A DNA stretch of 64,000 nucleotides from Parcubacteria group bacterium (GTDB lineage: Bacteria; Patescibacteriota; Minisyncoccia; Moranbacterales; UBA11712), in contig JBAZXV010000003.1 in the NCBI GenBank assembly GCA_041659685.1, forward strand, positions 66,040 through 130,039, read 5' to 3'. Below, one piece after another: positions 2,976 through 64,000 of the stretch. Position 1 is the first letter of the stretch. Every line of letters starts with the position of its first letter. The translations under genes were made by a program, and so were the position numbers. The notes below the pieces were generated by a model. The model searched no databases. It worked only from the letters and a program-made list of their open reading frames with translations, and had not been told where the DNA came from.

Positions 2976-3040
2976 AATTTTCCGACGTGAGATTTTCACG
3001 CCCTTTCCTGCAGTCGGACTTAATGAAAATATGATTTTGA

Positions 3041-3066: not shown

Positions 3067-3086
3067 CATCTAAAAATGAACTGGCA

Positions 3087-13882: not shown

Positions 13883-13888
13883 GAGAAA

Positions 13889-31677: not shown

Positions 31678-33045
31678 TTACTCTTCCCCGTCAAATTCTT
31701 CCATTTTAAATCTTCGGATCATGTAGGCAATTGGATTCTTTTTTGCAAGAATATTGAGAGCGAAATCAACCGCGTTCGAATCTTTCTCAATCGTTCCCAT
31801 GGGAAGGTCCGAAGGCATCCGAAGACTGCTCCATGCATCGCCCGGAAATGTTTTTATCGTAGCTGGCACAGAGATTACCGGCCAATGCGTGTGGGCCGCA
31901 AGTATCGGACCCAGCCCGTTGCTCATGCCGACTTTGGCGATGATCACTCCTCCGGCAGGAAATTCCCTTTCCAATCTTTTAAGTTCTTCAAGGCAAAGGG
32001 CGGTTTTTTTGTGACCGGAAATTATCTTTTCCACTACTTTCACACCCGGAATTTTGGGAACTTCAGGCATTTCGTCTTTTTCTGAACCGGTCCACAAAAC
32101 TAATGCCTGGTCGGATATTTTTGGAAAATCTTGCGTCAGATCGGCCACAAGCTGATATTTTGGTTCGATCATTTCCAGGTCTTCTCCGTCGCGGAAAGCC
32201 TGCTTGGAAAATTCTTTCCATTCGGGATCCCGCAAACGCCAGGAATCATTGTCAATTACATCGGCCACGACAAGCTCTCCGTCCTCGGTTATCCCGAATT
32301 CAATCTTGAGGTCGAGTATCCTGAAGTTTCTTTGCATAAACGCCCCTTCAAGAACCAAAAATGTTTTCTTCATGATTTCGTCCATTTTTTCAAGCCTGCC
32401 TGACTCTCCCAAAAGCACTTTCTTGCGCGATATTGTCCTCTTGAGATCGGATTTTTCATCCCAAACCGGTTTCCAGGCGAAAAGCGGCTTCCAGTTTTCC
32501 TCTTTCGGGTTAAGTATCACGGGATCATCCTGCTCTGAAGTAAGACCTTCAATTAATTTTTCACCGTCGATGACAACGCCCCCTTTAGTGGTCTTCAGAA
32601 AATATTCATTCGCGATGCGGGAAAAATAGTGAGGCGGCTCTCCCGCAGGAACTGTCATATGGGGATTTCTTTTGAGATAGCTTCCGAATGCATAGCGGCG
32701 CGGCACAGCCTCAACCAAAATCATTCGGCAAGGCTTGGCAACAAATTCCACTTCAGAAATTTGCCGCACAAAATGCGTGGGAATGCCGGCCTTTTTCAAA
32801 AGCTCAAAAACCCGGCAAGTCGTGAGATTGGAATTCCGGCCTTTACTTTTGAACTTTTTGGTATATTTAGGATCATTAAATGCGGTTATATCGTCCTTAT
32901 ACTCGACGATCACCGTTTTGGGATCATTTTTATTTTCCCAAATTTTTTTCGTTTTTCCCTCCGCGATAAGTTTCCCTTTTTGATGGCCAGGCATGGTGAT
33001 ATGGTTTATTAAATTAGAAAAAGGATTAAAATTTTCGAAAGGCAT
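31678..33045 (-). CDS. Bifunctional SAICAR synthetase (PurC) / PurE-type AIR carboxylase-mutase fusion (PAICS-like)
   Basis: N-terminal ~300 aa carry the PurC motifs EGKTKKIWE, LVEAVPRRYAFGS, LDLKIEFG and DVIDNDSWRLRD. C-terminal ~150 aa carry the PurE motifs LVLWTGSEKD and GLGPILAAHTHWPVISVP. Single uninterrupted 455-aa ORF. Confidence 0.75.
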   Translation of the reverse strand: MPFENFNPFSNLINHITMPGHQKGKLIAEGKTKKIWENKNDPKTVIVEYKDDITAFNDPKYTKKFKSKGRNSNLTTCRVFELLKKAGIPTHFVRQISEVEFVAKPCRMILVEAVPRRYAFGSYLKRNPHMTVPAGEPPHYFSRIANEYFLKTTKGGVVIDGEKLIEGLTSEQDDPVILNPKEENWKPLFAWKPVWDEKSDLKRTISRKKVLLGESGRLEKMDEIMKKTFLVLEGAFMQRNFRILDLKIEFGITEDGELVVADVIDNDSWRLRDPEWKEFSKQAFRDGEDLEMIEPKYQLVADLTQDFPKISDQALVLWTGSEKDEMPEVPKIPGVKVVEKIISGHKKTALCLEELKRLEREFPAGGVIIAKVGMSNGLGPILAAHTHWPVISVPATIKTFPGDAWSSLRMPSDLPMGTIEKDSNAVDFALNILAKKNPIAYMIRRFKMEEFDGEE

Positions 33046-33164
33046 ATTGCTTGGGAATCCAAATTTATCTGAAAATTTTCATTTTTGATTTGCATATGAG
33101 GAAATTTTCGGCTGTCAAATTTGAGATCAGAGTTTTATTTTGAAAAAATCTTTTATTCTTCTGC

Positions 33165-34469
33165 CTATCTTTTCTCAAAAACCCTTTTGAATATATAATC
33201 GACGTGCCGGAGCTTCTTTTCAAGGTCAAAACACCCGTCCAAATCTTCCCTGCTCAAATATTTCATCACTTTTTTGTCACGAATGAGCGCTTCCCGAAAA
33301 TCCTCCTTGCTTTCCCAGCAATTTTGGGCGATATCCCGGACAATCTTATAAGCCTCTTCACGGGGAAGGTTGCTTTTTTTCGCAAGAAGCGTCTGGACAT
33401 CCTGGGAGAAAACCAATCCCCTGGTAAGGAAAATATTTTCCCTCATCTTTTCAGGATAAATTATCCACTTTTCCAGGATGCCTGACAAACGGCTCAGCAT
33501 ATAATCAAGAAGAATCGACGCATCAGGAAGAAAAATTCTTTCCTGGCCGGAGTTTGAAAGATCCCGTTCATCCCAGCTGCTAATCGTCGCCAGGGCCGCT
33601 GCCGCATAACATCGCATCATATTCGCCATTCCGGAAACATTTTCGGCCGCAATAGGATTTCTCTTATGGGGCATAGCTGAAGATCCCCGCTGTTTTTCGG
33701 GATCGAAATATTCCTGGGCCTCAAGAATTTCCGTCCTTTGAAGAGTGCGGATGTTCACTCCGATCTTCTCGACTGTCCCGGCAACAATGGCCAGAACGGA
33801 AACATATTCAGCGCTGATGTCCCGCGAAATTATTTGCGAGGCGATAATGGGCCTCAGTCCTAAAATTTCGCAAGTTGCTTCCTCCACCCCGGGATCGAGC
33901 GTGTACATCCCCACCGCTCCGGAAATCTTCCCCACTGCGACTTGTTTTTCCAGTCTTTCCAGCCTGCTGTCTTGCCGGTTGAATTCGTCGTACCACCTGG
34001 CCAGTTTTGCGCCAAAAGTGATCGGCTCGGCATGAACCCCGTGTGTTCTTCCGATTTGAGGCGTATTTTTATATTTCAAGGCTTTTTCCTTGAGCGCTTC
34101 CTTTATTTTGTCGATCCGAATCCGAAGAAGTTTAATGCTTTCGATAAACTGAAGGCTGAGCGCCGTGTCTTGAGTGTCATAGGAAGTCATTCCGGCGTGC
34201 CAATAAGGACGAATTTCTTCCGGAAGCTGAGGCGAAGTATGCATCAGAAAAGCGATAACATCATGCCTCGTAATCTCTTTTTCAATCCGGTTTATTTCTC
34301 CGGGATCGATCCTTAGCGATTCAACCAAGTTTTTTGGAATTTTTACATCAAGAATCCCCAGGTTGACTTTGGCCGTAAGAACCGCCTCTTCAACCCTTGC
34401 CCAATTGCGAAATTTTGATTCTTCGCTCCAAATTCCATCCATTTCTTTGGTCGAATATCTCGATATCAT
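33165..34469 (-). CDS. purB: Adenylosuccinate lyase
   Basis: GSSAMPHKRNP signature. N-terminal MIxRYSxxEM typical of PurB. 434 aa. Confidence 0.9.
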   Translation of the reverse strand: MISRYSTKEMDGIWSEESKFRNWARVEEAVLTAKVNLGILDVKIPKNLVESLRIDPGEINRIEKEITRHDVIAFLMHTSPQLPEEIRPYWHAGMTSYDTQDTALSLQFIESIKLLRIRIDKIKEALKEKALKYKNTPQIGRTHGVHAEPITFGAKLARWYDEFNRQDSRLERLEKQVAVGKISGAVGMYTLDPGVEEATCEILGLRPIIASQIISRDISAEYVSVLAIVAGTVEKIGVNIRTLQRTEILEAQEYFDPEKQRGSSAMPHKRNPIAAENVSGMANMMRCYAAAALATISSWDERDLSNSGQERIFLPDASILLDYMLSRLSGILEKWIIYPEKMRENIFLTRGLVFSQDVQTLLAKKSNLPREEAYKIVRDIAQNCWESKEDFREALIRDKKVMKYLSREDLDGCFDLEKKLRHVDYIFKRVFEKR

Positions 34470-37694: not shown

Positions 37695-39185
37695 TTAATT
37701 TCCTCCCGCCCACTTCACCTCGCAAATTTCCGCCAAATTTCTGTTCACGGCAACCAGATTTTTCCCCGACAGTGCGTTTACGTCATTCTCTCCGACAATC
37801 CGGGCAAGTTCCGCGATCTCTTCTGTGGATATTTTAATAAAATTCTTGAGCTTGCGAACGCCTTCATCGACATCGAGTTGTTTTGTGAGTTCCGGCTTAT
37901 GCGTCGTTATGCCTGTGGGGCAAAGCCCCGTGTGACAAATCCGGTATTGCCGGCAATTGATGGCAATAAGCGCCGCCGTGCCAATATAGACTGCGTCTGC
38001 TCCGAGCGCAAGGCATTTAGCAAAATCAGCCGAAAAGCGCAGCCCTCCGCCGGCAATCAATGTTATTTTATCTCTTAACCTGAGCTCGCTAAGAATTTTA
38101 TTCGCCCTTGGTATCGCCGTCCAAATCGGAATTCCGACATTGTCCTTCACATACGCGTCCGTGGCGCCGGTTCCTCCTCCAAATCCGTCGACTGCAATGT
38201 AATCAATTCCCGCCTCGGCCAAAATTTTTATATCCTCCTCAATGTTCCCGCAGCCAATTTTCGCGCCGATCGGAATTCCGCCGGTGATTCCCCGCAGCCA
38301 TTTCACTTTTTTCGAAATTTCCGCAGGCGTCTTCATATCGTGATGATGGGCGGGGGAATAAGCCGGCTCTCCGGTCTTGAGCCCGCGAAGCTTTGAGACT
38401 TCCTCCGTCATTTTTTTGGCCGGAAGATAACTGCCCTTTCCCGGATAAGCCCCCTGGCCGAAACGGATTTCAACCGCCGCCACTTTCTTGAGGACGTCTT
38501 CGTTTATGCCGTATCTCCCCGTAGCGTATTGTCCGATCAAAAATTCTTTGGATTCATAAGCTTCCTCGATTATCCCCCCTTCTCCCGAATTAAAAGCTAT
38601 TTTCAATTCTTTTGCGGCGCGGGAAATAACAAGATGCACATTTTTCGAAGTTGCTCCGAAACTCATTCCGGAAATCATAATCGGAGAAGAAACCCGCAAA
38701 GGTTTTTTTGCCGCCGGACCGATGATTGTTTCCGTATTGACTTTTTCTTCTCGGTTTAAGGGTATTTTTGATATTTGAGCGGGAACGAAATGGAGGCCAT
38801 CAAACGAAAAATCGCAACCGGGATTCCTGAGAGATCCCATCGAGTTCACGATGCTCCTGCCCGTTTCCGCCAAAGTCTTGATATCAACGACCTTCCGATA
38901 AAATTCTTCGCTCTCAAGCGCTTTCTTTTTCCGCATAACCGCTTTTCCGCCTTTGGCGGACGCTAATCCAACTTCGTCCCGATTGCAATAATAAATTTCC
39001 TTAAGATTATTCTCGCTCCAAACTTCGCAACCCGGACAGAGGCATCCTTTAGCATCGATATCGCATCGGCTATGTCCGACTTCCTCAGAACAGTACAAGA
39101 TTTCACCCCGGCAATCATGCGGGTAACTGGGACAATTCGGACAAAGGCATTTCTCCCGGTTTTCCTTTGAATTTTGGACTGGCAT
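37695..39185 (-). CDS. Glutamate-synthase-family FMN-binding domain protein (GltB domain-2-like) with N-terminal Cys-rich DUF2769-like module
   Basis: VSSPIMISGMSFGATS...SGEGG and the GGTGA and IAGGGLR segments match the GltS FMN domain. The N-terminal 70 aa (CLCPNCP...GCLCPGCEVW) parallel the 76-aa neighbour. Confidence 0.7.
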   Translation of the reverse strand: MPVQNSKENREKCLCPNCPSYPHDCRGEILYCSEEVGHSRCDIDAKGCLCPGCEVWSENNLKEIYYCNRDEVGLASAKGGKAVMRKKKALESEEFYRKVVDIKTLAETGRSIVNSMGSLRNPGCDFSFDGLHFVPAQISKIPLNREEKVNTETIIGPAAKKPLRVSSPIMISGMSFGATSKNVHLVISRAAKELKIAFNSGEGGIIEEAYESKEFLIGQYATGRYGINEDVLKKVAAVEIRFGQGAYPGKGSYLPAKKMTEEVSKLRGLKTGEPAYSPAHHHDMKTPAEISKKVKWLRGITGGIPIGAKIGCGNIEEDIKILAEAGIDYIAVDGFGGGTGATDAYVKDNVGIPIWTAIPRANKILSELRLRDKITLIAGGGLRFSADFAKCLALGADAVYIGTAALIAINCRQYRICHTGLCPTGITTHKPELTKQLDVDEGVRKLKNFIKISTEEIAELARIVGENDVNALSGKNLVAVNRNLAEICEVKWAGGN

Positions 39186-47104: not shown

Positions 47105-49381
47105 TTACTTCCGATAAATCCTCAAACTGTTCGCCACCACCGAAACGGAGCTTGCCGCCATGGCTCCCGCGGCGATAATCGGATTAAGAAGCCCTGCCAT
47201 GGCCAGTGGAATAGCGACGATGTTATAGCCGAAAGCCCAAAAAAGATTTTGCCTGATTGTCCTGAAAGTAAGTTTGGATACGGAAATCGCTTCGGGAACT
47301 TTTTTGAGATTGTTTTGCACCAGAATTATCTGCCCCGCTTCTTTTGCGATATCCTGAGCCGAACCCATCGCAATTCCGAGATCCGCCTGCACAAGGCTTG
47401 GCGCGTCATTGATGCCATCGCCCACAAAAACGACTTTTTCCCCCTTTTGCTGGAGTTTTTTCACTTCCGCCGCCTTATCCTGCGGCAGAACTTCCGCGAG
47501 AACATTTTTAATCCCCAGTTCTTTCGCGATATGTTGCGCTACTTTTTGATTATCCCCCGTAATCATTGCCATTTTAAGTCCCATTTCCCGGAACATTTTA
47601 ATAACTTCTTTTGTTTCGTTCCGCAATTCGTCGGCAATGACAATCGCACCCAGCGCATCATTTCCGTGAACGACAAACAGCTTTGTTCCGGATTTGTATT
47701 CATCCGAATCCAGAATCTTTTGAGCCCAGTCCGTGCTGATATTTTTGTCTTTCAAAAGCTGGATGTTTCCCAGAAGAAGCTGCGTTTGATGCTCCCGGCA
47801 AACCGCGGAAATTCCTCTGCCTCTTTCCTCCTTAATATTTTCCACTTCCGCAAATTCAATATTTTTTCTCCGCGCATAATTTGCGACGGCCTTTGATAAA
47901 GGATGTTCCGAATGCCTTGCAAGGCTTCCGGCAATCTTCATAATCTTTTCTTCCGCAATTTTTGATTTGTTGTTCCTGATTATTGATAATATTTCCGGCC
48001 TTCCTTTTGTGAGGGTCCCTGTTTTATCGAAAACGACCATAGAGATGTCTTTTGCCCGCTCAAAACTTTCCCCGCTTTTGAAAAGGATGCCGCTTTTTGC
48101 CCCTCTTCCGGTCCCCACCATAATGGCCGCCGGAGTCGCCAGACCCAAAGCACAGGGACAGGCAATTACCAGAACCGCCACGGCGTTGATCATTGCCAAA
48201 GTGAAATCACCGCGCAAAAAATACCAGCCGGCGAAAGTCAGAATGGCAAGAAATATCACTGTCGGCACGAAAATCTCCGCGATCTTGTCCGCTAATTTTT
48301 GAATCGGAGCTTTCGAACCCTGCGCTTCCTCCACGGTCCTGATAATCTGCGCAAGCACCGTCTCTTCTCCCACCTTCGTCACTTTTATTATGAGGACTCC
48401 GTCTTGGTTTATCGTCGCGCCAAAAACCGGAGAATTCTTTTTCTTTTCAACCGGCAAGGATTCGCCCGTGAGCATCGACTCATCAACGTTTGATTCCCCT
48501 TCCGCCACAATTCCGTCCAGGGGAATCTTTTCCCCCGGCAAGACGCGCAAACTGTCTCCCGTCTTCACTTCATCAATGTTTATTTCTTCCTCCCGATTGC
48601 TTCCCCGGATCACGCGCGCCTTTTTCACTCCGAGCTCAAGGAGTTTGCGCATCGCTTCGCCCGCCTGTCCGGTGCTTTTGGCTTCGAAATATTTTCCGAG
48701 AAGTATGAGCGTGATGATGATCGCCGCAGTTTCGAAATAAGCTTCTTTTCCGAAAAACACGGCCCAAAGACTATAAAAATAGGCGGCTAGCGTTCCAAGT
48801 GACACCAGCGTGTCCATATTCGCCCGAAATTTTTTGGCCTGGAAAAACGCCATGCGATGAAATCGGAAACCGAACCAAAAAACAACAACTGTTGCGAGCG
48901 CGAGATGCAGCCACATTACGAGATCGATTCCCAAAAGCAGTTTTCCCGACCTAAGTTTCACAAACATCTCAATAAGCAGGGGGAAGCTGAAAACAGCCGA
49001 CCAGAAAAAAGCTTGCAGTTTTTCTTTAGTATCCCAGCTCTCATGGCGGTGATCGCCGTCCGTATGCATTAAGGCCTGGCCCTGAGGAATTCCGGCGGCT
49101 TGTTCGCCGGAAGGGAAAGATTGAACTTTGAAATTTGAGTGGATATCATCATGCTTCGGAATGCCCGATTCTTCCACTATGTAGCCGTTGTCTATAACAA
49201 CCTGTTTCACATGCTCCTCCGTCAAAGCATCAGCGTCGTATTCAATATAGGCTTTTTTAGACGCAAAATTAACGGTCGCATCCAAAATCCCTTTTGTCTT
49301 CAAAAGTTCCTTTTCGTTCGACACGGCGCAGCTTGCGCAGGACATGCCTGAGATGGCTATTATAAGTTTCCTTTTCTGCAT
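47105..49381 (-). CDS. copA: Copper-translocating P1B-type ATPase
   Basis: [29 protein letters not shown] and TGD motifs. The alternative longer start at 49420 would overlap the upstream gene by 4 nt. Confidence 0.9.
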
Positions 49382-49416
49382 ATATAATATAGTTTTTTTC
49401 CCCCGGCTATTCACAT

Positions 49417-50553
49417 TCACTCAACGATAAATTTTCCGCGGACCATTCCCATCCAACAGCTGAACGGAATCGGGCCTGCCTTTGTCGGCGTGAATTCAAT
49501 TACATTATCCCCTTTTTTTATGTCCTCAGCAATGCCAAATCCAGGAATGACGATCTTACTGGTGCATCCCGTCGCTTCGTCGCCATTTATTGAAAACCGG
49601 ACGGGAATGTTATTTTTTACCCGCAAAACGCTCGGTTCAAATCCGCGGCTTGTGATTTTCATTTCAATGTTTTGGGCGGCGCCAAACGAAGAAGAATCAT
49701 TCACTCCTTTGCTCATTTTTTGATTGGGGACCGGAATTTTTTCGGGAACATCATTTTTCACGCTCCATATCGCAAACCCGGAACTGAATGTGTAAACCGC
49801 AAAAAGAATGACCATTATTCCGGCGGCCTTGCTGACAAAAGCCATCTTCTCAAGCTTTGCCAGCGAAGTGGCGGCGCCGAGAGCGAGAAGCACCGGCATT
49901 GTCCCCAACGCGAACGCAGACATGGCGAAAGCTCCCGCCAAAAAGCTTCCTGACGCCAGCGCAAATATTTGCATGCTCTGTGTAAACCCGCAAGGAAGAA
50001 AAAAAGTGATCCCTCCGAGAAAATACGGCGCCGTTTTGTGTTCCGATTCTTCCAGTTTTCCCCAGTACCTCACCAGAAATTTCGGCATTCTTATTCCCAA
50101 AGAGGAAATCGGCGGAACAAAGCCTAAAATATTAAGTCCCAGCCACGCCATGACAACCGCGATCAGTGTTGTATACGCCGAAATAAAATTGCCGCCCAGA
50201 TTCAGTTTTCCTCCAAAAAGGCCCAGGAGGCCGCCCAAAACAAAAAACGTCAGGATTCTTCCGACGTGAAATTTCAGGTTTGGCTGGAGTGCGCCGGACC
50301 AAACGCTATTTTTTTCGCTGCTTTTATATTTTTCCGAAAAAGCCACCACTATGCCTCCTGCGACCACAAGACATGAAGAAAACGAGGCGGCAATGCCGAT
50401 TAAAAACGAGATTCCAAGTGATATTCTGTCTCCGTATGCCCCAATGCCCCCAAACCATCCTGATAATTGGATGGCTCTATATAAAATTAGGACGGCAATG
50501 ACCGTTAAAAAGGCTTTCAGCCAATCCATCCGCCCGTTATTTGGGTTTTCCAT
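49417..50553 (-). CDS. Membrane protein (DsbD_2/TauE-like transmembrane domain) fused to a C-terminal cupredoxin-like domain
   Basis: Eight to nine transmembrane helices with SSCLV. C-terminal ~90-aa beta domain with C...CWMGM, as in small copper-binding cupredoxin-like proteins. Directly upstream of copA. Confidence 0.5.
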
Positions 50554-53638: not shown

Positions 53639-53666
53639 ATCCCGCCGAGGCGGGATGGTTTTTTGC
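53639..53666 (+). terminator. Rho-independent terminator
   Basis: atcccgcc-gag-ggcgggat stem followed by GGTTTTTTG. Confidence 0.65.
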
Positions 53667-54077
53667 AAAGGGAGATGAAATGGCATCATAAAATTATTCG
53701 CGCTGCGAAATATTCCGAACGCGGGCAGCCGACACGAAACAATTCTCCTCAAAAATAGCCAGTTTAAAGGGCTATTTTTTTATTCCGCCGATAATTTTTC
53801 GGCGGCTCTTTTTGAAATATATTGAAAAGTCGATTGTAACAGGTGTTAACAAAAGAAAAATCTTTACGTGTGGAGGGAAATTTCCGGTATGCGCGAAATA
53901 ATTCTGCTTATTGCGAACGATTTTTCTTGAGTTTCGAGAATGAATGTTCTCGGACAAAGCCGCAACAATCTCCTGATCGCAAATCGGGAATATCAAATGC
54001 ATGAACGGCTTTGGTTGAACATTAACAATTAATTGTCATCCGGCCGATCAGGCCGCTAATAGGGGGAGACGGCAATT

Positions 54078-54749
54078 ATGGCCTCAAAAAAAGAAATCCG
54101 GTTGCTACGGTCATTGCTTTTATTAATCGGAATAATTTTTACCGCGTCATCATGCGTCAGCATGAATAGCACCCCTCAACATCCGATCCAGCAGAGTATC
54201 CGCGTGGACGGGGATCTCCAGCCAAAGCAAGTCAAGATCTCAAACTTCGGAAATATTCAGGAAACTGGCGTGACTGCTTTTTCGAGCAACTATCGCCAAT
54301 TTTCCAGGAAAATCAAGAAAGGCAACAAAACTGAAGAAACAAACTACTGGGAGCCGATCAAATGGCAAGGCATGAACAATCTGGCTCCTGACACAAAAAA
54401 ACTGAAGTTCTCTCTTATTGTAGAAAATCCGTTTTTCAGGACTTATCGACTTGTCAAAATTATCGACATCGAGGGCCAAAAGCGGGAAGAGGAAGTTCTG
54501 ATATTTCCGAGCGGCCAGAAAGAAAGCTTCGCGGACATTCAGGAAATGTACAACATAGAGTGTCCGGTCGTAGCCGACAAGTCGATCAGGATTACCATCA
54601 GGTTGGACCTTCTGGAGGGCTCCGGAATACCGGGGATGAATAGTCTGACGGTTTCCGAACTCTCATACAGGATAGGTAGCGCTGGAAATCTCTCCGATCA
54701 GAGAATCTCCAAGAAAGCGCAAAAAGGGGGTGTTCACCCGGAAAACTGA
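54078..54749 (+). CDS. Hypothetical lipoprotein
   Basis: Signal peptide with lipobox TASSCVS. Confidence 0.5.
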   Translation: MASKKEIRLLRSLLLLIGIIFTASSCVSMNSTPQHPIQQSIRVDGDLQPKQVKISNFGNIQETGVTAFSSNYRQFSRKIKKGNKTEETNYWEPIKWQGMNNLAPDTKKLKFSLIVENPFFRTYRLVKIIDIEGQKREEEVLIFPSGQKESFADIQEMYNIECPVVADKSIRITIRLDLLEGSGIPGMNSLTVSELSYRIGSAGNLSDQRISKKAQKGGVHPEN

Positions 54750-54844
54750 AAAAGGAATTAGGGGTTTAAATGCGGGAAATCATCGGAGTTGATTACAAAC
54801 CACATTTCATTTAACACTTCGCTTCACATCTAAGGAGATCGAGT

Positions 54845-55465
54845 ATGAGACGGAAAGTTTTCGCGGCCTTCATGGCCCTGGCTATCGTGTTTGCCCTGAG
54901 TTCTTTGGCAATGGCCAATTGGGATCCGCCTGCGCCCGTTTATAACGACGGCACCGCCGACGTCAAGATTGACCAGGTTCAGGGCGCTGCGGGCGTGGCC
55001 GGTTTGGTGGTTGACGTCACGAGTGAAAAGGGCCATGTGTTCAAGACCACCGACTCCACTTCCGTTTCCGGCAGTGGCGCCTTTGGCCTGAACGACTTTA
55101 ACAGCGTCGACGGATCAAGCTGTTTCAGCAAAGATGGCTGCTTCAAGGAAGGCGTGGTCGGCGTTGGTCACTTTGACTTCAACTACGACAAAGTCCACAC
55201 CTGCGGCACTGTGTACGTTGACAATAAGACCATTGCCAACGTGTACCAGAACACCAGCTCCATGAACAGCAGCCTGATCGCCAGCGCTTCCGCCTGTCAG
55301 CTGCCGGTGACGGCCAATGCCAGCCAATCCCAGACCTTCACCCAGAACGTGGTGAACGCCGTGATCCCGAACCCGAATGCCGGTTGGGGCCAGCCTGCGA
55401 CCCTGGGCACCGTCAACAGCGGCTATGTCGGCAACACTGCCGCCAGCGTAAAGATCGGCAACTAA
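54845..55465 (+). CDS. Secreted hypothetical protein (in GC-rich island)
   Basis: Signal peptide ending ALSSLAMA. GC ~58% against a ~42% background. Gly/Asn/Val-rich. Confidence 0.55.
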   Translation: MRRKVFAAFMALAIVFALSSLAMANWDPPAPVYNDGTADVKIDQVQGAAGVAGLVVDVTSEKGHVFKTTDSTSVSGSGAFGLNDFNSVDGSSCFSKDGCFKEGVVGVGHFDFNYDKVHTCGTVYVDNKTIANVYQNTSSMNSSLIASASACQLPVTANASQSQTFTQNVVNAVIPNPNAGWGQPATLGTVNSGYVGNTAASVKIGN

Positions 55466-55578
55466 CAACATAGCTCCTGGAAGTATCTACAGGACTTAAT
55501 CAACCGGCCCGGTCGCGGAAAAAGAGGCACGTCCTCCGATCCGCTTCCGGGCCCGTTATATATTAGGAGATCGGACGC

Positions 55579-56634
55579 ATGAATAAAAAATCGGGTCTTA
55601 TCCCCATACTGCTGAGTGCGGTTCTGACGGTATTCCTGGCGTATTCTGCCCAAGCTCAGACTGTCCAAACCAATACCGCTTCTCAGAACACTAACCTCAA
55701 TCAAGTTGTTCTGCCCGGGGGCACCGGATACGGCGGAACAACAAACAACACTGCAACCGACCCCGCTGGAGGCACTGTCGCTTCCAATCCTCAGAAGTAT
55801 CCACGGACGTGGTTTAATCCGATGAACCTTCCAGGGGTTTCCGGTCCGATCTATTATGGCGGTCCGGTGCGATATGGAAAAGAACTTCTGGATGTTGGCA
55901 TCCTCATCCGTTTCAAACCGGTTTGGGATCCTGCCTTCTCTCAAAAATTCGCCGGCCGGCCGGGTAAGACGAATGTTTCTGAATCTATTCCGACGCCGAA
56001 AGACGCCCGATCCGGCACTTCAGTCACGATGACTCTGCATCAGCCGCAAAGCCCGAAGAAGCTCAGGGATTTCAATCGTTCCTTTGAGCTCGTCGACTGC
56101 TATTCAGTTGACGGGCAAGACGGCGCCGACAGTCCAAAGCTGCTGGGCATGGCGGCTGAAAAAGCGAGCAAGGTTAATGCCGACATTGGCATTGTCGTGA
56201 ACCAGGGGGCGAATTTTGAGCTCTCCGGCAAAGACAGCCAGCAAGTCATCGGATTTTCTCCGAGTCTCATGGGAGGAGGAGCCGGATCGGTTGCAGGAGG
56301 CGCGTTGGGGTTTGCCTTAGGTTGGGCTCAGCACAAGGCAAAGTACTTAACCCAACCATTCCTCGTGGTTTTGCTTTTTAAGAGCACGGGGGTTCCATAT
56401 GACTGGCGGGAGGAGGAGCAAAAAACTCAACCCAAACCGGTTCCTGCAGTGCCGCCTTCGTCCTACAATGGCGATAATAATAACCATGAGGCAGGCGCGG
56501 CGCAGGAGCCAGCAAACCAAGTGCATGGAGCGAAAACCGCGAAAGGGACAAAAGACGTCCCTCCTCCCAAAGGGGAGAAACTCCCCTACAAGAGACCGGC
56601 ACCCTCGCTTCTGATCGAGCAGCAGCCCAGGTGA
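55579..56634 (+). CDS. Secreted hypothetical protein (in GC-rich island)
   Basis: Signal peptide ending AYSAQA. GC-rich. Gly/Thr-rich N-terminus and a Pro/Lys-rich tail. Confidence 0.55.
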   Translation: MNKKSGLIPILLSAVLTVFLAYSAQAQTVQTNTASQNTNLNQVVLPGGTGYGGTTNNTATDPAGGTVASNPQKYPRTWFNPMNLPGVSGPIYYGGPVRYGKELLDVGILIRFKPVWDPAFSQKFAGRPGKTNVSESIPTPKDARSGTSVTMTLHQPQSPKKLRDFNRSFELVDCYSVDGQDGADSPKLLGMAAEKASKVNADIGIVVNQGANFELSGKDSQQVIGFSPSLMGGGAGSVAGGALGFALGWAQHKAKYLTQPFLVVLLFKSTGVPYDWREEEQKTQPKPVPAVPPSSYNGDNNNHEAGAAQEPANQVHGAKTAKGTKDVPPPKGEKLPYKRPAPSLLIEQQPR

Positions 56635-57067
56635 TCTCCAAAAAAAGAAAATCTGGACAAAGCTTGTGTCGGAAAGCAGTCCGGCCAGGCATACCACAGG
56701 AGGCGCAACCGCGAGTTACGCCTCCTTTTCCAATATAAACACAGAACTACTAATGTTTTTCAGCTTTAAAATACATCCGCTCAAACGGAATATTTTTCAT
56801 AAGATTGCGGAGGAGAACCAGAGAGTTGACTCGTCAATTCCAGAAATAATCTGGGAACTCGATTGTATTATTTGTCAAAGATACGCAAAAAAGCGCTTAG
56901 GCATAATTTATTCTCCATTATTTTTTACTTTTGCTTTGCCGACAGCCGCAGAAAGAATCGCCTGCTGTTCAGTAAAGCAAAGGTCGAAAAATTACTTCTT
57001 TCCGAAAATGTTTTCTGAAGGAGGGAAGGAAAGTTAATCCAGTGAATTTGAAAGGGGGTGAGAAAAC

Positions 57068-57631
57068 ATGAAAAAGATAATTGTATCGTCAATTGTTGGT
57101 TTAGCGCTTGTTGCGGCGATATCGCCGGCGATGGCCAGAGTCAATTTCCATACGCCTTCGATGCCGAACAATCATAATAATTGCTGCGCCAATAATGATC
57201 CATGCTGCCCGGAAGTGAAGATTGACAGCTATAACAACGCAATGATAAAAAATTCCGTTTTAGCGGTCAGCAACACGGGACTAAATGGAGTAATAGACCC
57301 GGAAGATAATGATTCTTATCACAACAATAATAATCATAATTCTTTCAACTGGCCCAATAGTTCGGACGATCCAGGGTCAATTACCACAAAAGACGCCACG
57401 GCAGTTAACGGAGTCGAGAACGACGTTAATTCGATCCACGAAATCGCCATGCCGACATCGGGAACTCTCGACATAAAGACTGTAAACTCTGCATACGTCG
57501 ACAATAAAGTCGGAGCGGTAGCAAATTCCGGCGCAAATCTAATCATTAAATCGGGCACCATAAGCACCGGCGGAGCTGGCGCCCAGAACTCAGTAGTAAA
57601 CATGGTCCAATCAGGAATCACGGTTTACTAG
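57068..57631 (+). CDS. Secreted Asn/His-rich protein carrying one copy of the N-x-A-x-A-x-x-G-x-N repeat shared with the downstream giant protein
   Basis: Signal peptide. CC...CC segment. C-terminal NSAYVDNKVGAVANSGANLIIKSGTISTGGAGAQNSVVNMV parallels the repeats of the 1069-aa protein. Confidence 0.55.
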   Translation: MKKIIVSSIVGLALVAAISPAMARVNFHTPSMPNNHNNCCANNDPCCPEVKIDSYNNAMIKNSVLAVSNTGLNGVIDPEDNDSYHNNNNHNSFNWPNSSDDPGSITTKDATAVNGVENDVNSIHEIAMPTSGTLDIKTVNSAYVDNKVGAVANSGANLIIKSGTISTGGAGAQNSVVNMVQSGITVY

Positions 57632-57742
57632 CCACTTTACGGAGAAAACTGGAGGGCAAAGCCTTCTTCAGAATGTTCCGAACAAGGACAGCCCTTCAGT
57701 TAATCCGTATAATTTGAAATTTTTACTTATAAATCCAAGATC

Positions 57743-60700
57743 GTGAAGATTATTTCCGGAAAAAATAAAGTTATAAAAATGAATTTGATTCGTTTTTTTA
57801 TTGCTTGCCTTCTGACTTTAGGACTGATTTTTAATAATATTGCCCTACCTATTTCGGTGGAAATTGCAATGGCGCAGTCTGATTCTGGTCAAGAAACGGA
57901 CACGAAAGAAAATATCGATAACCAAGAATCTAAAAACGCCAACGGCGGCGAAGAATCAGGAAAAGTTGATGGTCCATCAAGCGCTCAGGAAAGCAAGGAC
58001 ACCCAAAAGGAGGACGGACAAGACGATCCAATTTGGAAATCATGCGACTTTTCTAAAAAAGAAAATAAGCTTATTAAAAAAAACAAAGGCAAGGAATGCC
58101 GCAAAAAAGACAGCTGTAAAAAGATAAAAGAATGCCTTTCCGATTTCATCAGCATCAAAAACGAAGCGGACATAAAAAACGATTCCAATTCCTCCGCAAA
58201 TACCGGGGAAAATATTATCAGTCCTGACGAAGACAGCGCCGGGATAGATTATCCGATTGAAGAAACAGCGACCGAAGAAAATCCGAAAGAAAAAAATGAA
58301 TCAGAAGACGTTACTGAGATCAATCCTGAATCGGGGAATGAAGACGAATCCGGTGACAATATTTCTCCTCAAAATGAACCCCCCGGTGAACCGTCCGGAA
58401 TAAATGATCCGGATCCGGAAATATCCGGCGGAGAAGGAAAAGAAGCTTTTGAAGATACGGCTAAAAACGGGATTGATCCAAACAGCCAAAAAGAAGCATC
58501 GGACAGCGCCTCAACCGATCAAGCCGTATTAAAAGATGAAGCTTCTGAAGAAAAAGACAATATTTCGATAAATAGCGATCAAATAACAGAGAACGAAAAT
58601 AATCCTCTCGACAAAAAAACCGCGCAAAGCGTCCCAACGGTGACCGAGGAAAATGACCAGGAAATAGGAACATCGGCAACGGACAATGAAAAAAGCGCAC
58701 CAGTTGATAAAGAAATAAATTCTCCGGAAGAAGAAGATGAGAACATCGAAAGTATCCCGGCAGTGACCGAGGAAAATGATTCGGAAACAGAAACATCGGC
58801 ATCCGCCGAAAAAAGCGACGCGGAGAATGAAGATATGCCAAACAGCATCGAAACGGATGATGCCGCGGCAGAAAACAGTGTGTATAACGAAATAAACACA
58901 AATGTCGTCGGAGAAAATGTCGAAAAATTCGAACAGAATATCACGGGCATGTACAGCGGAGACATCAATCTTCTCGACGAATTCACAAATCTTCTTTCCA
59001 GTGCCGATACGGCAGATTCAAACGGCCTAACAGCCGCTCAGATTGCAATTGAGAATACTGCCGAAACTGAAAACAGCCTGGAATCCAGCGCGACAACGGG
59101 AGGCAATTCAATAGAGGGAGAAGACAGCCGGGCCGCAATCGAAACGGGTGATGCCATATCAGCGGCGAATATCGTGAATTTTATTAATGTCAATCTTATC
59201 GGAGAAAATTGGCTGTTTGCGACCATAAATGTTTTTGGTGACTGGGTGGGAGATTTGATTGTTCCGGGAGAAGGCCTCCTGAATGTTCCGGAGGCGAGTG
59301 CGCAGTCAAACGAGAATATTTCGATTGAAAATGACGCTACAATAATAAACACCGCTGATGCAAACGCATCGACCGGATCAAACACGATCAGCGGAGATAA
59401 CGGCACAGCCGCAATAGAAACGGGCAGCGCCGCTTCCAGTTCGGTTATCAAGAATGTGGTCAATACGACAATTATTAAAAATAGCTGGTTCTTTTTGACG
59501 ATAAATAATATGGGCAGCTGGATTGGAAAAGCAATCCATTGGGGAGAAGATAATAACGAAGAGATATACAGCTATGATTTTAATGAGGACGAAAGTTGGG
59601 AAGCAAACCTCACTAATTGGTTTTCAAGCATATTCATCAAAAACAGCGCGAATATCGAAAACAGCGCAGTTGCAAGCGCTTCGACCGGCAGTAATTCCAT
59701 TAAAGGAAATTATGGAGCGGCTAATATTCAAACCGGAAGCGCGTATGCCGCCTCCAACATATATAATTTTGTGAATACAAGCATCATCGGGAATAATTGG
59801 TTTTTCGCAACCGTAAATATATTCGGTACCTGGAAAGGAAACGTCAATTTCGCCTATCCCGACCTTTCCGTTTCGATTAATGACGGGAAGGGTTCAGCTA
59901 ACAGAGGTGAAAATCTGCATTATTCCGTTGAGATCGAGAATGAGGGAAAAGCAAGCGCCAGTAATGTCTATGTGCGGATTTCCCTCCCTGATTGCCTAAG
60001 CACCAGCGGCAACCCGAATACGGGGGACAAAAATGGATCCGGCAATGAAATTTCCTGGAATCTTTCGGGCCTCGGAGCGGGAGAGAAGAAAAGCTTTTCA
60101 ATTGACGCGGCGGTTCCAGAAAATATTTCCCCGGATGAATCAAAAATCCGAACATATGCGCAAGTACTGACCGAGACCAAAGAGACGGAACTCGATAATA
60201 ACACTTCGGCAGACGATACGCTGATTAATCCGTCAGTAGAAGATAATAATGAAATCAGCCCGCCTGAGATCATCACTTTGAATGACAACCCCAATAAAAT
60301 TCAGGGTTCCCAAGTCAATGATCCCCAAACTAATGACCCTCAAGCGCAATATTCGCTTTCGATAAGAAGAGAAATAAACAACAAAAAGGCAAAGCCGGGA
60401 GAGAAAATTAAGTACACCATCTATGTCAGCAATTCGGGCGATGGAGATCTGCATAAAGTGAAAGTGGAGGACAATCTGAAAAATAAGGATGGAGATCTGG
60501 GATCGTACGCATGGGACATTGGAAATCTCGGGAAAGGGAAAACAGCCAAAGTAACATACGGACTCCTGATCGGCGCTGATGCTCCGAAGGGAGATTATAA
60601 AAGTTCGGCTGTTGCCACTGGCTTCGATCCGAACGAGTCGGAAGTGAAGTCCTCTGAAGCAAAAGTGTCTTTTCATATGGAGAGCGTTAAATTAGCCGCC

Positions 60701-60952
60701 GCCCAACAGCAATATTATTACTATTACTACTTATATTCCCCCGCCTACAGCAGACAGGTGCAGCCATTTTCAATTATTGAAACGGCTTCCGCCGCCGAAA
60801 ATAACGAAGACACTCATCCGAGAGTTCTGGGCGCATGGACCAATCGCAAATCCGCCCTTCCTCTCACCTATTGGTTAATCGCAGCCCTTTCGTATTCTTA
60901 TCTCTTAAACAGCTTTCTTTTCCCTAAGAAAAAAACAAAACAACATACATGA
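57743..60952 (+). CDS. Giant acidic surface protein with three novel ~75-aa repeats, two DUF11-like domains, a poly-Tyr tract and a C-terminal sorting-signal-like anchor
   Basis: N-terminal signal or transmembrane segment. Asp/Glu-rich region with 120-nt tandem DNA repeats. Three repeats ...STGSNSI.G..GAA.I.TGSA.A.SNI.NFVNTSIIG.NWFFAT.N.FG.W. DUF11-like segments GENLHYSVEIENEGKASASNVYV and GEKIKYTIYVSNSGDGDLHKV. Terminal LPLTYW, then a hydrophobic stretch and KKKTKQHT. The alternative start is the ATG at 57779. Confidence 0.7.
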   Translation: MKIISGKNKVIKMNLIRFFIACLLTLGLIFNNIALPISVEIAMAQSDSGQETDTKENIDNQESKNANGGEESGKVDGPSSAQESKDTQKEDGQDDPIWKSCDFSKKENKLIKKNKGKECRKKDSCKKIKECLSDFISIKNEADIKNDSNSSANTGENIISPDEDSAGIDYPIEETATEENPKEKNESEDVTEINPESGNEDESGDNISPQNEPPGEPSGINDPDPEISGGEGKEAFEDTAKNGIDPNSQKEASDSASTDQAVLKDEASEEKDNISINSDQITENENNPLDKKTAQSVPTVTEENDQEIGTSATDNEKSAPVDKEINSPEEEDENIESIPAVTEENDSETETSASAEKSDAENEDMPNSIETDDAAAENSVYNEINTNVVGENVEKFEQNITGMYSGDINLLDEFTNLLSSADTADSNGLTAAQIAIENTAETENSLESSATTGGNSIEGEDSRAAIETGDAISAANIVNFINVNLIGENWLFATINVFGDWVGDLIVPGEGLLNVPEASAQSNENISIENDATIINTADANASTGSNTISGDNGTAAIETGSAASSSVIKNVVNTTIIKNSWFFLTINNMGSWIGKAIHWGEDNNEEIYSYDFNEDESWEANLTNWFSSIFIKNSANIENSAVASASTGSNSIKGNYGAANIQTGSAYAASNIYNFVNTSIIGNNWFFATVNIFGTWKGNVNFAYPDLSVSINDGKGSANRGENLHYSVEIENEGKASASNVYVRISLPDCLSTSGNPNTGDKNGSGNEISWNLSGLGAGEKKSFSIDAAVPENISPDESKIRTYAQVLTETKETELDNNTSADDTLINPSVEDNNEISPPEIITLNDNPNKIQGSQVNDPQTNDPQAQYSLSIRREINNKKAKPGEKIKYTIYVSNSGDGDLHKVKVEDNLKNKDGDLGSYAWDIGNLGKGKTAKVTYGLLIGADAPKGDYKSSAVATGFDPNESEVKSSEAKVSFHMESVKLAAAQQQYYYYYYLYSPAYSRQVQPFSIIETASAAENNEDTHPRVLGAWTNRKSALPLTYWLIAALSYSYLLNSFLFPKKKTKQHT
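58631..58870 (+). repeat. Two tandem ~120-nt near-repeats inside the acidic region of the giant gene
   Basis: ggtgaccgaggaaaatgaccaggaaataggaacatcggcaac aligns with cagtgaccgaggaaaatgattcggaaacagaaacatcggcatc. Both encode (V/I)P(T/A)VTEEND...TSA. Confidence 0.6.
59051..59857 (+). repeat. Three protein-level ~75-aa repeats (Asn/Gly/Ala-rich, ending NWFFAT.N.FG.W)
   Basis: Repeat starts at ~59051, ~59327 and ~59639. Aligned by eye. Confidence 0.55.
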
Positions 60953-61289: not shown

Positions 61290-61800
61290 TCATGGACTAA
61301 GATTGTTTGATTTGTCTGGTGATTCCCTGTGCGCCCTGTCACAGACGGGCCGCACAAGCCATGAGCGCTGTTTCACTCATGAGTTCTACTCTACGGGGTA
61401 GCTGCTATGGGAACAAGGAGCCGTCTTAGCCATGAGCGCAAACGAAGGCTTCCGAATCTGCCGACGACTCTTTTAAAGAGAACTCGCGGAGAAGCCAAAT
61501 TCGTAGCGCACTGGCCGCGCCCCGGCAAACATGCCTCTTGAGGCAATGCCTTTCCGAACAGGAATAAATTCGAAAATTGAATAGTTCGAAAAGGCTCAGC
61601 CTGGTGCAGAGAGCGTCTGCCAAGTCGCAAAAGCGAGGGGCAAGCAATCGCCAACTGTGACTCCTATGATTCAGGCGATTCGGGCACTGGTCGGGATTGA
61701 TTTTGAAGGGAGAATCCCGGCAAAGAATATCCCTTCTAAGGAGGGTGGCGGCCATTTTGGCGCGCCACCTTTTTCACTTCTCCGGCCGGTTAAAGAATAA
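61290..61800. other. ORF-free, GC-elevated (~50-57%) block: candidate structured non-coding RNA of unknown class
   Basis: No ORF longer than ~100 aa on either strand across 61156-61871. Duplicated 12-mer AGCCATGAGCGC at ~61361 and ~61430. Local hairpins catgag...ctcatg and cgggatt...aatcccg. Confidence 0.25.
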
Positions 61801-61871
61801 AAATTATTAAACTCTCTGAGATCGATTTCCGGCTGATTCTTCCTAGGCGCAAGAAAATGACAGAAAAAAAT

Positions 61872-64000
61872 ATGAGTATCAAACAAAGAAGCTTTTACTG
61901 GATTCTGGCGCAAGGAATCGCAATTATGCTTTTGGTTTACTCGACAAGCTTCATCAGTTTCGCCCTCTTTCATTCCGTCTCCGAAATAGCGTCTATTGTC
62001 ATCTCCTTTGGAATATTCATTGTTGCCTGGAACTTTCAGAAATTCCGGGGAAACAATTTCGTCCTGATTATCGGAGTCTCTTACTTTTTCGTGGCCGCCC
62101 TAGATCTCCTTCATACTCTTTCTTTCAGCGGATTGTCTCTCTTTCAAAATGACTCGAACCTGCCGACCCAGCTCTGGATAGCGGCAAGATACATGGAAAG
62201 CCTCTCATTTATTGCGGCTTTCTTTTTTTTAAAGAGAAAAAAGATGCTTCGCGGAGATTCAGTTTTTCTTCTTTTCCTCGTTATTTCACTCGCGATCACG
62301 CTGTTTGTTTTTTACTGGAGAGTATTTCCTGACGCATTTATCGAGGGATCCGGTCTTACGGAATTTAAAATATCAAGCGAATACCTGATTTCGTTCTTCT
62401 TTTTGGTTTCATTCGGATTGCTTTATTCCAACCGCCGGCTGTTCGATCCCAGATTTGCGCAGTTCCTTATGCTTTCGCTCTCGGTAAAAATTGCGTCGGA
62501 AGTGTTTTTTTCCCATTATGCCAGTGTAACCGACCTTTCAATGCTGATGGGTCACCTTCTTAAGGTTTTATCCTTCTTTCTTCTCTATAAGGCCATTATT
62601 GAAATAGCACTGATTGATCCTTATAATGTTTTATTCCGTGATTTGAAACAATCGGAACAAAAGTACCGGGACTTGGTTGACAACTCATTGGTCGGAATCT
62701 ATAGAGCCGACCTCGAAGGAAATTACCTGTACGTTAATGAAGCCATGGCCGAAATGTTCGAGTTTGAAACGCCCGAAGCTATGATTCGCGAGGGCGGAAA
62801 AATGCGTTACGAAAAGGAAAGCGATAGAATGATTTTCCATGACCGACTCCAAAAAGAAGGGAGAATCGCCAACTACGAACTTGCGGGAAAAACCAAAACC
62901 GGCAAAAAAATAAACATCCTGTCCAATGCAATGATTGCCGGCAACGAAAGATCCGGGATGATTCTCAACATTACCCTCCGAAAAAAGCTTGAGAATTTAC
63001 TACAGAAAAACATCAGGGAACAGCAAATCATAATTGACTCGGTATCCGCAATGATATTTTTCAAAGACCGGGAAAACCGCCTGATCCGGGTAAATAAAGC
63101 GTTTGAAAAAACTATGGGAGTGCCGAAGAAAAGGCTAGAAGGACTATCCCTCAGCGAAATATATCCGGCATACCAGGCGGAGGCATTCCAAAAAAGTGAC
63201 CTCGAAGTTATTAAATCCGGAAAAGAAAAATTAGGAATAATCGAATATATGGATACATCAGTCGGCACCAGGCTGGTCCAAACAGATAAGGTCCCCTATT
63301 TTGACGAATCGGGAGAGATTGCAGGCATTATCGGTTTTTCAATCGACATTACCGAAAACAAAAAGGCCGAAGAAGCGCTTAGGGAAAGCGAAGCCAAATA
63401 TCGCCAGCTGTTTTCGAGCATGGCCAGTGGAGTTGCCTACCACGAAATAAAATATGACCGGAAAGGAAATCCGGTTGACTACGTATTTATCGAAGCCAAT
63501 GAATCCTATGAAAAAATGACCGGACTTAAAAGAGAAGAATTAATCGGAAAAAGCGCGCTGGACATCATTCCGAAAATGAAAGAGTACCCTTTTGACTGGA
63601 TCGGCGCTTATGGAAAAGTAGGCTGCGGAGGAGAGCCGCTCCGATTTGACCGATACTCTAATTTTCTCAAAAGATGGATATCAATATCCGTCTACAGCCC
63701 TAAAAAAAATTTTGTTATCTCTGTTTTCGAAGATGTGCATGAACGAAGAAAAGCGGAAGACGCGAAAGATGAGTTTCTTTCTCTGGCTTCCCATCAACTG
63801 AAAACACCGCTTTCAAGCATCGGCTTGTCCTCCGAACTTCTTCTCAGAGGAGTTTCCGGAAAACTTGAAAACGAACAGAGAGAATATCTTGAGGACATCA
63901 ATAAATCCGTAAAAAGGATGACTCTTCTTGTTAACAATCTTCTCGATGTTTCACGCCTTGACATAGGCAGTTTTGAATTCAAAAGAAGCCCTCTCAATTT
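61872..64000 (+). CDS. Sensor histidine kinase, 3'-truncated at the window end: N-terminal MASE-type (MASE3-like) membrane domain, three PAS domains and HisKA
   Basis: ATG at 61872 with an open frame to the window end, which is why it is missing from the ORF track. Six to seven transmembrane helices with HSVSEIASIVISFGIFIVAW. PAS-like segments. H-box LASHQLKTPLSSI. Confidence 0.8.
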   Translation, partial: MSIKQRSFYWILAQGIAIMLLVYSTSFISFALFHSVSEIASIVISFGIFIVAWNFQKFRGNNFVLIIGVSYFFVAALDLLHTLSFSGLSLFQNDSNLPTQLWIAARYMESLSFIAAFFFLKRKKMLRGDSVFLLFLVISLAITLFVFYWRVFPDAFIEGSGLTEFKISSEYLISFFFLVSFGLLYSNRRLFDPRFAQFLMLSLSVKIASEVFFSHYASVTDLSMLMGHLLKVLSFFLLYKAIIEIALIDPYNVLFRDLKQSEQKYRDLVDNSLVGIYRADLEGNYLYVNEAMAEMFEFETPEAMIREGGKMRYEKESDRMIFHDRLQKEGRIANYELAGKTKTGKKINILSNAMIAGNERSGMILNITLRKKLENLLQKNIREQQIIIDSVSAMIFFKDRENRLIRVNKAFEKTMGVPKKRLEGLSLSEIYPAYQAEAFQKSDLEVIKSGKEKLGIIEYMDTSVGTRLVQTDKVPYFDESGEIAGIIGFSIDITENKKAEEALRESEAKYRQLFSSMASGVAYHEIKYDRKGNPVDYVFIEANESYEKMTGLKREELIGKSALDIIPKMKEYPFDWIGAYGKVGCGGEPLRFDRYSNFLKRWISISVYSPKKNFVISVFEDVHERRKAEDAKDEFLSLASHQLKTPLSSIGLSSELLLRGVSGKLENEQREYLEDINKSVKRMTLLVNNLLDVSRLDIGSFEFKRSPLN

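Follow-up and report, generated by a model that had tools for sequence, protein, structure and literature searches.

The GC-rich island of a rare Lp-A-B secreted-protein module in a Parcubacteria genome most likely reflects the genes themselves rather than recent import

A 64,000-nucleotide (nt) stretch of DNA from a Parcubacteria group bacterium (GenBank assembly GCA_041659685.1, contig JBAZXV010000003.1, forward-strand positions 66,040 to 130,039; hereafter, the window) contains a short island of high guanine-plus-cytosine (GC) content that covers two neighboring genes for secreted proteins, which we call A and B. Together with a lipoprotein gene directly upstream (Lp), they form a three-gene module that is also found in a few other bacteria of the candidate phyla radiation (CPR). 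We conclude that the GC excess is most likely a property of the genes themselves, and not the trace of a recent import or of an assembly error. The evidence comes from the way in which the excess is divided between codons and amino acids, from its retention among strongly diverged orthologs, and from the host-like composition of Lp within the same operon.

Results

The first-pass annotation of this DNA had described a GC-rich island at 54830-56640, and the island was recovered when composition was recomputed. GC content is 55.4% at 54830-56640 and 44.3% in the remainder of the 64-kb window. Across non-overlapping segments of 1811 nt, the mean GC is 44.4%, with a standard deviation of 1.9% and a maximum of 48.8%. 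With z = 5.9, the island is the global GC maximum among segments of its size, and its composition clearly deviates from that of the host. In 100-nt steps, GC goes up at ~54851 and down at ~56701, with values of 47-67% within the island and 35-48% in the spacers alongside. The island begins at the start codon of A, continues through A, the hairpin of the A-B spacer, and B, and ends with a terminator-like hairpin at 56698-56729. Its left edge is an AT-rich spacer that carries a Shine-Dalgarno sequence, and its right edge is the terminator-like hairpin itself.

Because the source is a metagenome-assembled genome (MAG) and the composition changes sharply at both edges, the island could in principle be a GC-rich fragment of another organism that was mis-joined, a possibility that the first-pass annotation had raised. 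We consider such a chimera extremely improbable. A contig that Logan had built separately from run SRR18595301 (L001; 3948 bp) corresponds to window positions 54078-58025 with 0 mismatches and runs across both edges. In addition, the junction between low-GC Lp and GC-rich A is reproduced in every related locus, that is, in five loci from other samples and assemblers. The edges also fall on functional signals, a start codon on the left and a terminator on the right, and not on arbitrary break points.

All three genes of the module lie on the plus strand. The first, Lp (54078-54749), encodes 223 amino acids (aa) with a lipobox that ends in TASSC, and at 46% GC it is host-like in composition. Its mature protein is basic (isoelectric point [pI] 9.1) and well conserved. 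Gene A (54845-55465; 58% GC) encodes 206 aa, consisting of a signal peptide and a mature protein of 181 aa. Upstream of A is the Shine-Dalgarno sequence AAGGAGAT (54832-54839, plus strand), in which the GGAG is separated from the ATG of A by 7 nt. Gene B (55579-56634; 54% GC; NCBI locus tag WC831_03015) encodes a basic protein of 351 aa (pI 9.3) that also has a signal peptide, and it is preceded by the Shine-Dalgarno sequence TAGGAGAT (55564-55571, plus strand). A repeat search found the ribosome-binding motif to be nearly identical before A and B (ATCTAAGGAGATCG and ATATTAGGAGATCG). The signal peptides that had been claimed for both proteins were confirmed by eye and are maintained in homologs. 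In each case, there is a basic n-region, a hydrophobic core, and an AxA site, at the N-terminal sequence MRRKVFAAFMALAIVFALSSLAMA ahead of NW in A and MNKKSGLIPILLSAVLTVFLAYSAQA ahead of QT in B.

We then asked how much of the GC excess is due to the proteins and how much is due to the codons. The expected GC of each gene was calculated from its own amino acids under the average codon usage of the window. Background genes have a GC of 0.453 ± 0.024 and a GC at third codon positions (GC3) of 0.49 ± 0.04. The observed GC of A is 0.580, compared to 0.508 expected from its amino acids, and its GC3 is 0.754, compared to an expected 0.527. For B, the observed and expected values are 0.542 and 0.525 for GC and 0.562 and 0.518 for GC3. 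In A, a little less than half of the excess relative to the average gene is explained by amino acid content (Ala, Gly, Val, Thr, and Ser), and codon choice explains the larger part. In B, amino acid content (Gly 11%, Pro 9%, and Ala 9%) explains the excess almost entirely. The GCC/GGC/CTG bias that had been attributed to both genes is real for A, where these codons make up 67%, 80%, and 75% of their codon families, but it does not extend to B (26%, 37%, and 37%).

The codon bias of A is a preference in which C is taken and A is avoided, and not a general shift toward GC. Third positions in gene A are 0.52 C, 0.23 G, 0.19 T, and 0.05 A, versus 0.27 C, 0.23 G, 0.26 T, and 0.24 A in the background. 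Accordingly, the codons GCC, GGC, ACC, and AGC are enriched, while GCG, GGG, ACG, and TCG are depleted. This pattern bears on the possibility that A and B were recently imported from a donor of higher GC and have still to adjust to the host, a view for which their atypical composition speaks. A GC-rich donor would raise both G and C at third positions; the excess in A is not donor-like because G is flat there and A is depleted. More generally, the mutational spectrum of a donor would shift both G and C at third positions, would shift all of the genes in a unit, and would decay with time, and we did not find this pattern. Gene A favors C over U in its Phe, Tyr, Ile, and Asn codons, with a log-odds of 1.20 (n = 39 codons), as expected of a selected bias. 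The same quantity is 0.58-1.84 in five A orthologs and 0.26-0.69 for B.

The composition of the module is conserved among CPR orthologs. The window's BipA is 80-86% identical to that of Candidatus Moranbacteria MAGs, which places the host, at ~44% GC, among CPR bacteria related to Moranbacteria. Lp, A, and B occur in the same order in five related CPR loci (L002, L004, L007, L094, and L096), with Lp directly upstream of A in each. The Lp gene of module loci is ~200-230 aa long. Three genomic contexts can be distinguished. The window has lgt and genes for secreted proteins; L002, L004, and L094 have aminotransferase, Mur-ligase, dnaG, and dUTPase genes; and L007 and L096 have beta-propeller and extracytoplasmic function (ECF) sigma factor genes. 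In the five loci, A orthologs have 55-62% GC and a GC3 of 0.67-0.74, and B orthologs have 51-56% GC, against locus backgrounds of 41-48%. Their Lp genes are not elevated (43-49% GC). At four-fold sites, all six A genes have 0.42-0.59 C and 0.02-0.11 A, with G not raised, while the backgrounds have 0.24-0.30 C and 0.16-0.27 A.

This composition has been kept despite extensive divergence. Amino acid identity among the CPR orthologs is 26-58% for A, 57-71% for B, and 55-67% for Lp. Over the same genome pairs, A is the fastest-evolving protein, with 29-54% identity compared to 56-71% for B and 55-67% for Lp. Such a difference is typical of exposed subunits compared to assembly parts. Between orthologs, ~50-69% of third positions differ, and the GC excess is retained in orthologs with ~50-65% of these positions changed. 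Because the orthologs are so diverged, a donor signature would have decayed long ago, whereas a cause that is intrinsic to the genes keeps the composition in place. An imported composition is further disfavored because three genes with one history differ in GC, with Lp remaining host-like.

The module is rare. Among 5.8 billion clustered proteins, close relatives number ~10 for B and two for A, and a HMMER profile search of 1.84 billion representatives yielded 19 clusters of the B family, all of 260-374 aa. A search with only two peptide patterns found CPR-type B in 0 of 185,579 species-representative genomes, and the JGI metagenomes added only three more module loci. Distant versions are arranged as Lp, then two to three A-like genes, then B, with B proteins that are 22-26% identical. 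They were found in L091 (GCA_041299815.1; 57% GC), in L092/L093 (52% GC), and in L097 (59% GC). The A proteins of CPR bacteria align with the A-like paralogs of these distant loci at a probability of 97% (hhalign; E = 1e-10, 175 columns). In L092, three A-like genes are followed by tandem B paralogs (2057-3016 and 3085-4035), and the module of L092/L093 lies beside ROS/MucR and outer membrane protein (OMP) beta-barrel genes, neighbors that suggest a diderm host for the L092 version. The Lp of L091 (4683-5252) is 27% identical to CPR Lp and has invariant positions in common with it. In L097, a gene at 823-1944 encodes a 373-aa protein that, by eye, has the same N-terminal lipoprotein region. 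This homolog is also lengthened by a long stretch rich in Lys and Pro. The Cys-rich motif at the end of that stretch, HLPGCRW...QPCIRCCP, suggests that a domain for metal binding has been added.

Movement of the module between lineages at some time is likely because it is rare, occurs in three CPR contexts, and is present in distant GC-richer bacteria; overall, it is likely an ancient, rare, and patchy module that has spread horizontally. Ancient movement is a separate matter from the GC composition and does not explain it. The same features, namely, the patchy distribution, the differing contexts, and the occurrence of whole-module homologs in genomes of 52-59% GC, could be cited in favor of a recent acquisition, but the CPR module proteins are only ~22-35% identical to their non-CPR relatives, which makes any transfer ancient. 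Signs of mobility were also lacking. A scan of the 64-kb window detected 0 tRNAs, flanking repeats were short and at chance level, and there was no integrase or transposase; the neighbors are lgt and secreted-protein genes. Searches of plasmid, phage, and IMG/VR sequences returned no relatives of the module. Taken together with the codon pattern, the host-like Lp, and the diverged orthologs, these results make recent acquisition from a GC-richer donor improbable. The horizontal acquisition proposed in the first-pass annotation is thus supported as far as the secreted nature of the proteins, the rare and patchy module, and probable past movement are concerned, but GC content does not serve as evidence for it.

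Hairpins are a recurrent feature of the operon. Two terminator-like hairpins with T-runs follow lgt (53639-53656 and 53785-53805, plus strand; consensus matches only) and may delimit the transcription unit on its upstream side. The A-B spacer is 113 nt long and contains a hairpin (55495-55567, plus strand; core stem GGCCCGG...CCGGGCC at ~55506-55553), then a U-rich stretch, and then the Shine-Dalgarno sequence of B. The predicted folding energy of this hairpin is -40.7 kcal/mol (z = -2.7). A hairpin is located directly 3' of A in all six CPR loci, and those in L002, L004, L094, L007, and L096 have z scores of -3.9 to -6.2, with 0 of 200 shuffled sequences as stable. The core GGCCCGG/CCGGGCC is common to four loci, and another stem takes its place in the remaining two. 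No such hairpin is present in the distant loci (L091, L092/L093, and L097). After B, a hairpin resembling an intrinsic terminator, AGGAGGCG...CGCCUCCU followed by UUU, is found at 56698-56729 (hairpin at 56698-56726, plus strand; region z = -4.2, 0 of 200 shuffles as stable). It appears to mark the end of the operon along with the right edge of the GC island. An open reading frame (ORF) of 123 aa with a GTG start (56666-57037, plus strand; 2589-2960 in L001) falls mostly in the ~37% GC spacer beyond this terminator and is probably spurious.

A structured RNA or an antisense gene hidden in the GC-rich stretch would be another source of unusual composition, and minus-strand ORFs at 55115-55471 and 55462-55944 (118 and 160 aa) do overlap the island. 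Among the orthologs, however, the antisense frames vary in place and length, and their weak similarity mirrors the conservation of the sense strand. Divergence between B and its ortholog in L004 is 0.26/0.17/0.65 at the three codon positions, which fits the plus-strand frame and indicates purifying selection in it. Rfam searches of the locus and of the whole window gave no match at the gathering score or at E ≤ 0.1. A hidden feature of this kind is accordingly very hard to credit.

The proteins themselves belong to no recognized family, in line with the earlier statement that they lack recognizable domains: sequence searches of Pfam, NCBIfam, PHROGs, and PDB were empty above threshold. Mature A is acidic (pI 4.7), with 12% charged residues, four Cys residues, and an abundance of Val, Ala, Ser, Gly, Asn, and Thr. 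Its C terminus (...KIGN) is without a sorting motif, and no significant internal repeats were found in it (best self-match of 24, equal to the shuffled mean of 24 ± 4.6). A candidate family for A, DUF7265 (PF23927), was rejected, with 20.1 bits against a gathering threshold of 24.6 (E = 7e-4) and a match in 1 of 10 A-family members; a literature search on DUF7265 found nothing. We also rejected kinship of A to two secreted proteins of 187 and 1069 aa that are encoded downstream, since the matches are short and at the level of motifs and both proteins are missing from related loci. Lp has no Pfam or NCBIfam family.

For B, there was no Pfam or PDB relative, and NCBIfam matches (malonate decarboxylase beta, WGxxGxxG) were rejected as far below cutoffs, one of them lying on the signal peptide. 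The protein has a low-complexity N terminus rich in Gln, Asn, and Thr, followed by a conserved core at approximately residues 76-276 with dozens of invariant residues. In the sole hydrophobic segment beyond the signal peptide, there is a glycine zipper, G232-x3-G236-x3-G240-x3-G244-x3-G248, which conforms to the GxxxG pattern. The hydropathy of this segment is 1.22 over residues 229-247, and its glycine-rich pattern is kept across a 25-sequence alignment. The tail is rich in Pro and Lys and ends in a conserved KLPYKRPxPSLLxEQQ. AlphaFold2 (AF2) models of the core tentatively indicate a helix-strand-helix-four-strand pattern only.

Several other features of the window lie outside the module. 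Downstream of B are the two plus-strand genes for the secreted proteins of 187 aa (57068-57631) and 1069 aa (57743-60952). The larger protein is acidic and of low complexity in its N-terminal half and contains three tandem modules of ~100 aa as well as a poly-Tyr run (QQQYYYYYYLY). Its C-terminal domains are of the DUF11/CARDB/DUF7507 types, and it has a hydrophobic anchor at the C terminus. Both proteins carry 'N-x-A-x-I-x-N...A-S/N-T-G-x-N' motifs, and the two genes are missing from the other A-B loci. Just upstream of these two genes, at 57032-57053 and 57698-57719, are copies of a 22-nt motif, AGTTAATCC...AATTTGAAA (82% identical). The two genes may share it as a promoter or operator, and its second copy overlaps with a TATAAT that resembles a promoter element. 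Farther along, a reading frame that stays open for at least 735 aa (~61790-64000, plus strand) continues past the end of the window, with an N-terminal membrane segment and a kinase-like C-terminal part. This frame explains an apparent 3-kb gene-free stretch.

On the minus strand, 10346-15049 and 47105-50553 encode an AcrB-family resistance-nodulation-division (RND) pump of 1178 aa that also has a weak HMA-like match, a HlyD-type membrane fusion protein, CopA, and a DsbD_2-cupredoxin fusion. A tripartite-type pair of RND pump and membrane fusion protein is unexpected in a CPR bacterium, which is usually assumed to be without an outer membrane. Genes for a SAICAR synthetase/AIR carboxylase fusion, an adenylosuccinate lyase, a glutamate-synthase-domain protein, and a PAS-GGDEF diguanylate cyclase (31678-34469 and 37695-39185 on the minus strand and 15379-16281 on the plus strand) give the window a biosynthetic and signaling capacity beyond that of a typical reduced CPR genome.

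Discussion

If the composition of A is intrinsic to the gene, it remains to be asked what maintains it. The codon pattern and the consensus Shine-Dalgarno sequence, both sequence-level signs, suggest that A is abundant. The 'S' index ascribed to Sharp et al. 2005 reportedly marks highly expressed bacterial genes by a preference for C over U in Phe, Tyr, Ile, and Asn codons, and A takes C over U at the same four amino acids. Also as is usual for such genes, A-ending codons are avoided at four-fold sites in A. There is a difference from the classic case, however, in that CPR bacteria are not expected to show strong translational selection. A bias unrelated to expression could come from mRNA folding or stability, from avoidance of A-rich nuclease sites, or from the coding of low-complexity Gly/Ala/Pro sequence, in which case A need not be abundant. 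The amino acid origin of most of the excess in B would agree with such a cause, but A prefers C over U at exactly the residues that make up the classic signature of translational selection, and it has a consensus Shine-Dalgarno sequence and a 3' hairpin of a kind common after genes for abundant subunits. Furthermore, although the A protein diverges much faster than B, its gene does not exceed that of B in divergence at third positions (0.49-0.69 for A and 0.62-0.67 for B), which is in keeping with constrained synonymous sites. We therefore regard a cause unrelated to expression as unlikely, though it deserves more weight than recent import.

We propose that A, which is acidic and low in charge, would be made in large amounts, exported via the Sec pathway, and built into a surface layer or fiber as its structural subunit. 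The hairpin after A could end most transcripts or stabilize the A message, leaving A in excess over B. The basic, conserved, glycine-zipper protein B and the basic Lp would be located at the membrane, where they would anchor or assemble A. Taken as one account, gene-intrinsic composition together with this functional reading seems to us somewhat favored. On its own, the assignment of A as the subunit and of B and Lp as membrane-proximal partners, which was made from sequence features, is tentative and, in our estimate, somewhat less likely than not. More speculative still is the idea that Lp, A, and B are the three components of a system, not described before, that builds an abundant surface layer or fiber, in which A would polymerize and B and Lp would form a membrane-embedded platform for export or anchoring, shared by a few Moranbacteria-like CPR bacteria and a few distant, probably diderm, bacteria; we consider this rather doubtful.

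A number of observations weigh against our account. The 64-kb window is without genes for ribosomal proteins, EF-Tu, or chaperonins that could serve as a reference for the optimal codon set. CPR bacteria are thought to be slow growers, and slow growers usually have weak translational selection, which makes the strong bias in A somewhat unexpected; another cause, such as mRNA stability, could be responsible. In the GC-richer distant loci, the codon usage of A-like genes is like that of their neighbors, with no extra bias. Covariation in the consensus hairpin is thin, with compensatory changes at 3 of 12 pairs among 6 sequences. The functional reading draws no support from structure or homology: AF2 models of B had a predicted local distance difference test score (pLDDT) of 37.5 with a 10-sequence alignment and 44.0 with a 17-sequence alignment, too poor to use, and a Foldseek search of the B model against PDB gave no match at E ≤ 0.001 (best probability, 0.11). 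With regard to assembly, the Logan contig may share reads with the source assembly and is perhaps not fully independent.

Literature searches on CPR surface proteins and codon bias found nothing relevant, but the layout of the module invites comparison with known systems. In fimbrial operons such as pap and fim of Escherichia coli, an intercistronic hairpin after the gene for the major subunit sets the excess of that subunit. The module is similar in that a gene for a small, fast-evolving secreted subunit with a strong Shine-Dalgarno sequence is followed by a conserved hairpin and accompanied in the operon by more conserved partners, and in that distant loci have two to three subunit paralogs. 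It differs in that no chaperone, usher, sortase, or pilin domains were found, and the partners are a lipoprotein of ~200 aa and a glycine-zipper protein of ~320-350 aa. Neither chaperone-usher or sortase components nor an LPXTG motif were present in the module or its neighbors at any locus. Curli and type VIII secretion (CsgA/B, CsgG, and CsgE/F) likewise have a lipoprotein encoded together with an accessory protein that is secreted and with small secreted subunits in which Asn, Gln, Ser, Gly, and Ala are plentiful. Membership in that system was rejected, with no match to Curlin_rpt or CsgG, no Pfam family for A, Lp, or B, and no repeats in A above shuffled controls.

Glycine zippers are known from membrane proteins such as the SlyB/Rick_17kDa-type Gly-zipper lipoproteins. 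B resembles these in having five glycines at i+4 spacing in a hydrophobic segment, but it is not a lipoprotein, is much larger, and matches no Pfam Gly-zipper family at E ≤ 10. The locus also has the look of a horizontally acquired genomic island, with atypical GC, sharp edges, and rare, patchy genes. It departs from one in that no mobility genes, tRNA, or flanking repeats were found and in that the deviation is specific to codons and amino acids and is kept among diverged orthologs.

These results carry a caution for the reading of composition in genomes of this kind. A GC island need not mean horizontal transfer, and the split between amino acids and codons, together with diverged orthologs, can separate an intrinsic signal from that of a donor. 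The module itself is a rare, conserved, and wholly uncharacterized operon of three secreted proteins that is a member of none of the families tested. Both the codon usage and the layout of the operon hint at a surface product of very high abundance in CPR bacteria that are episymbiotic and uncultured and whose envelopes and host-attachment structures are poorly known. Should A prove to be a major component of the envelope, it would serve well as a marker and could be targeted by cryo-electron tomography and proteomics.

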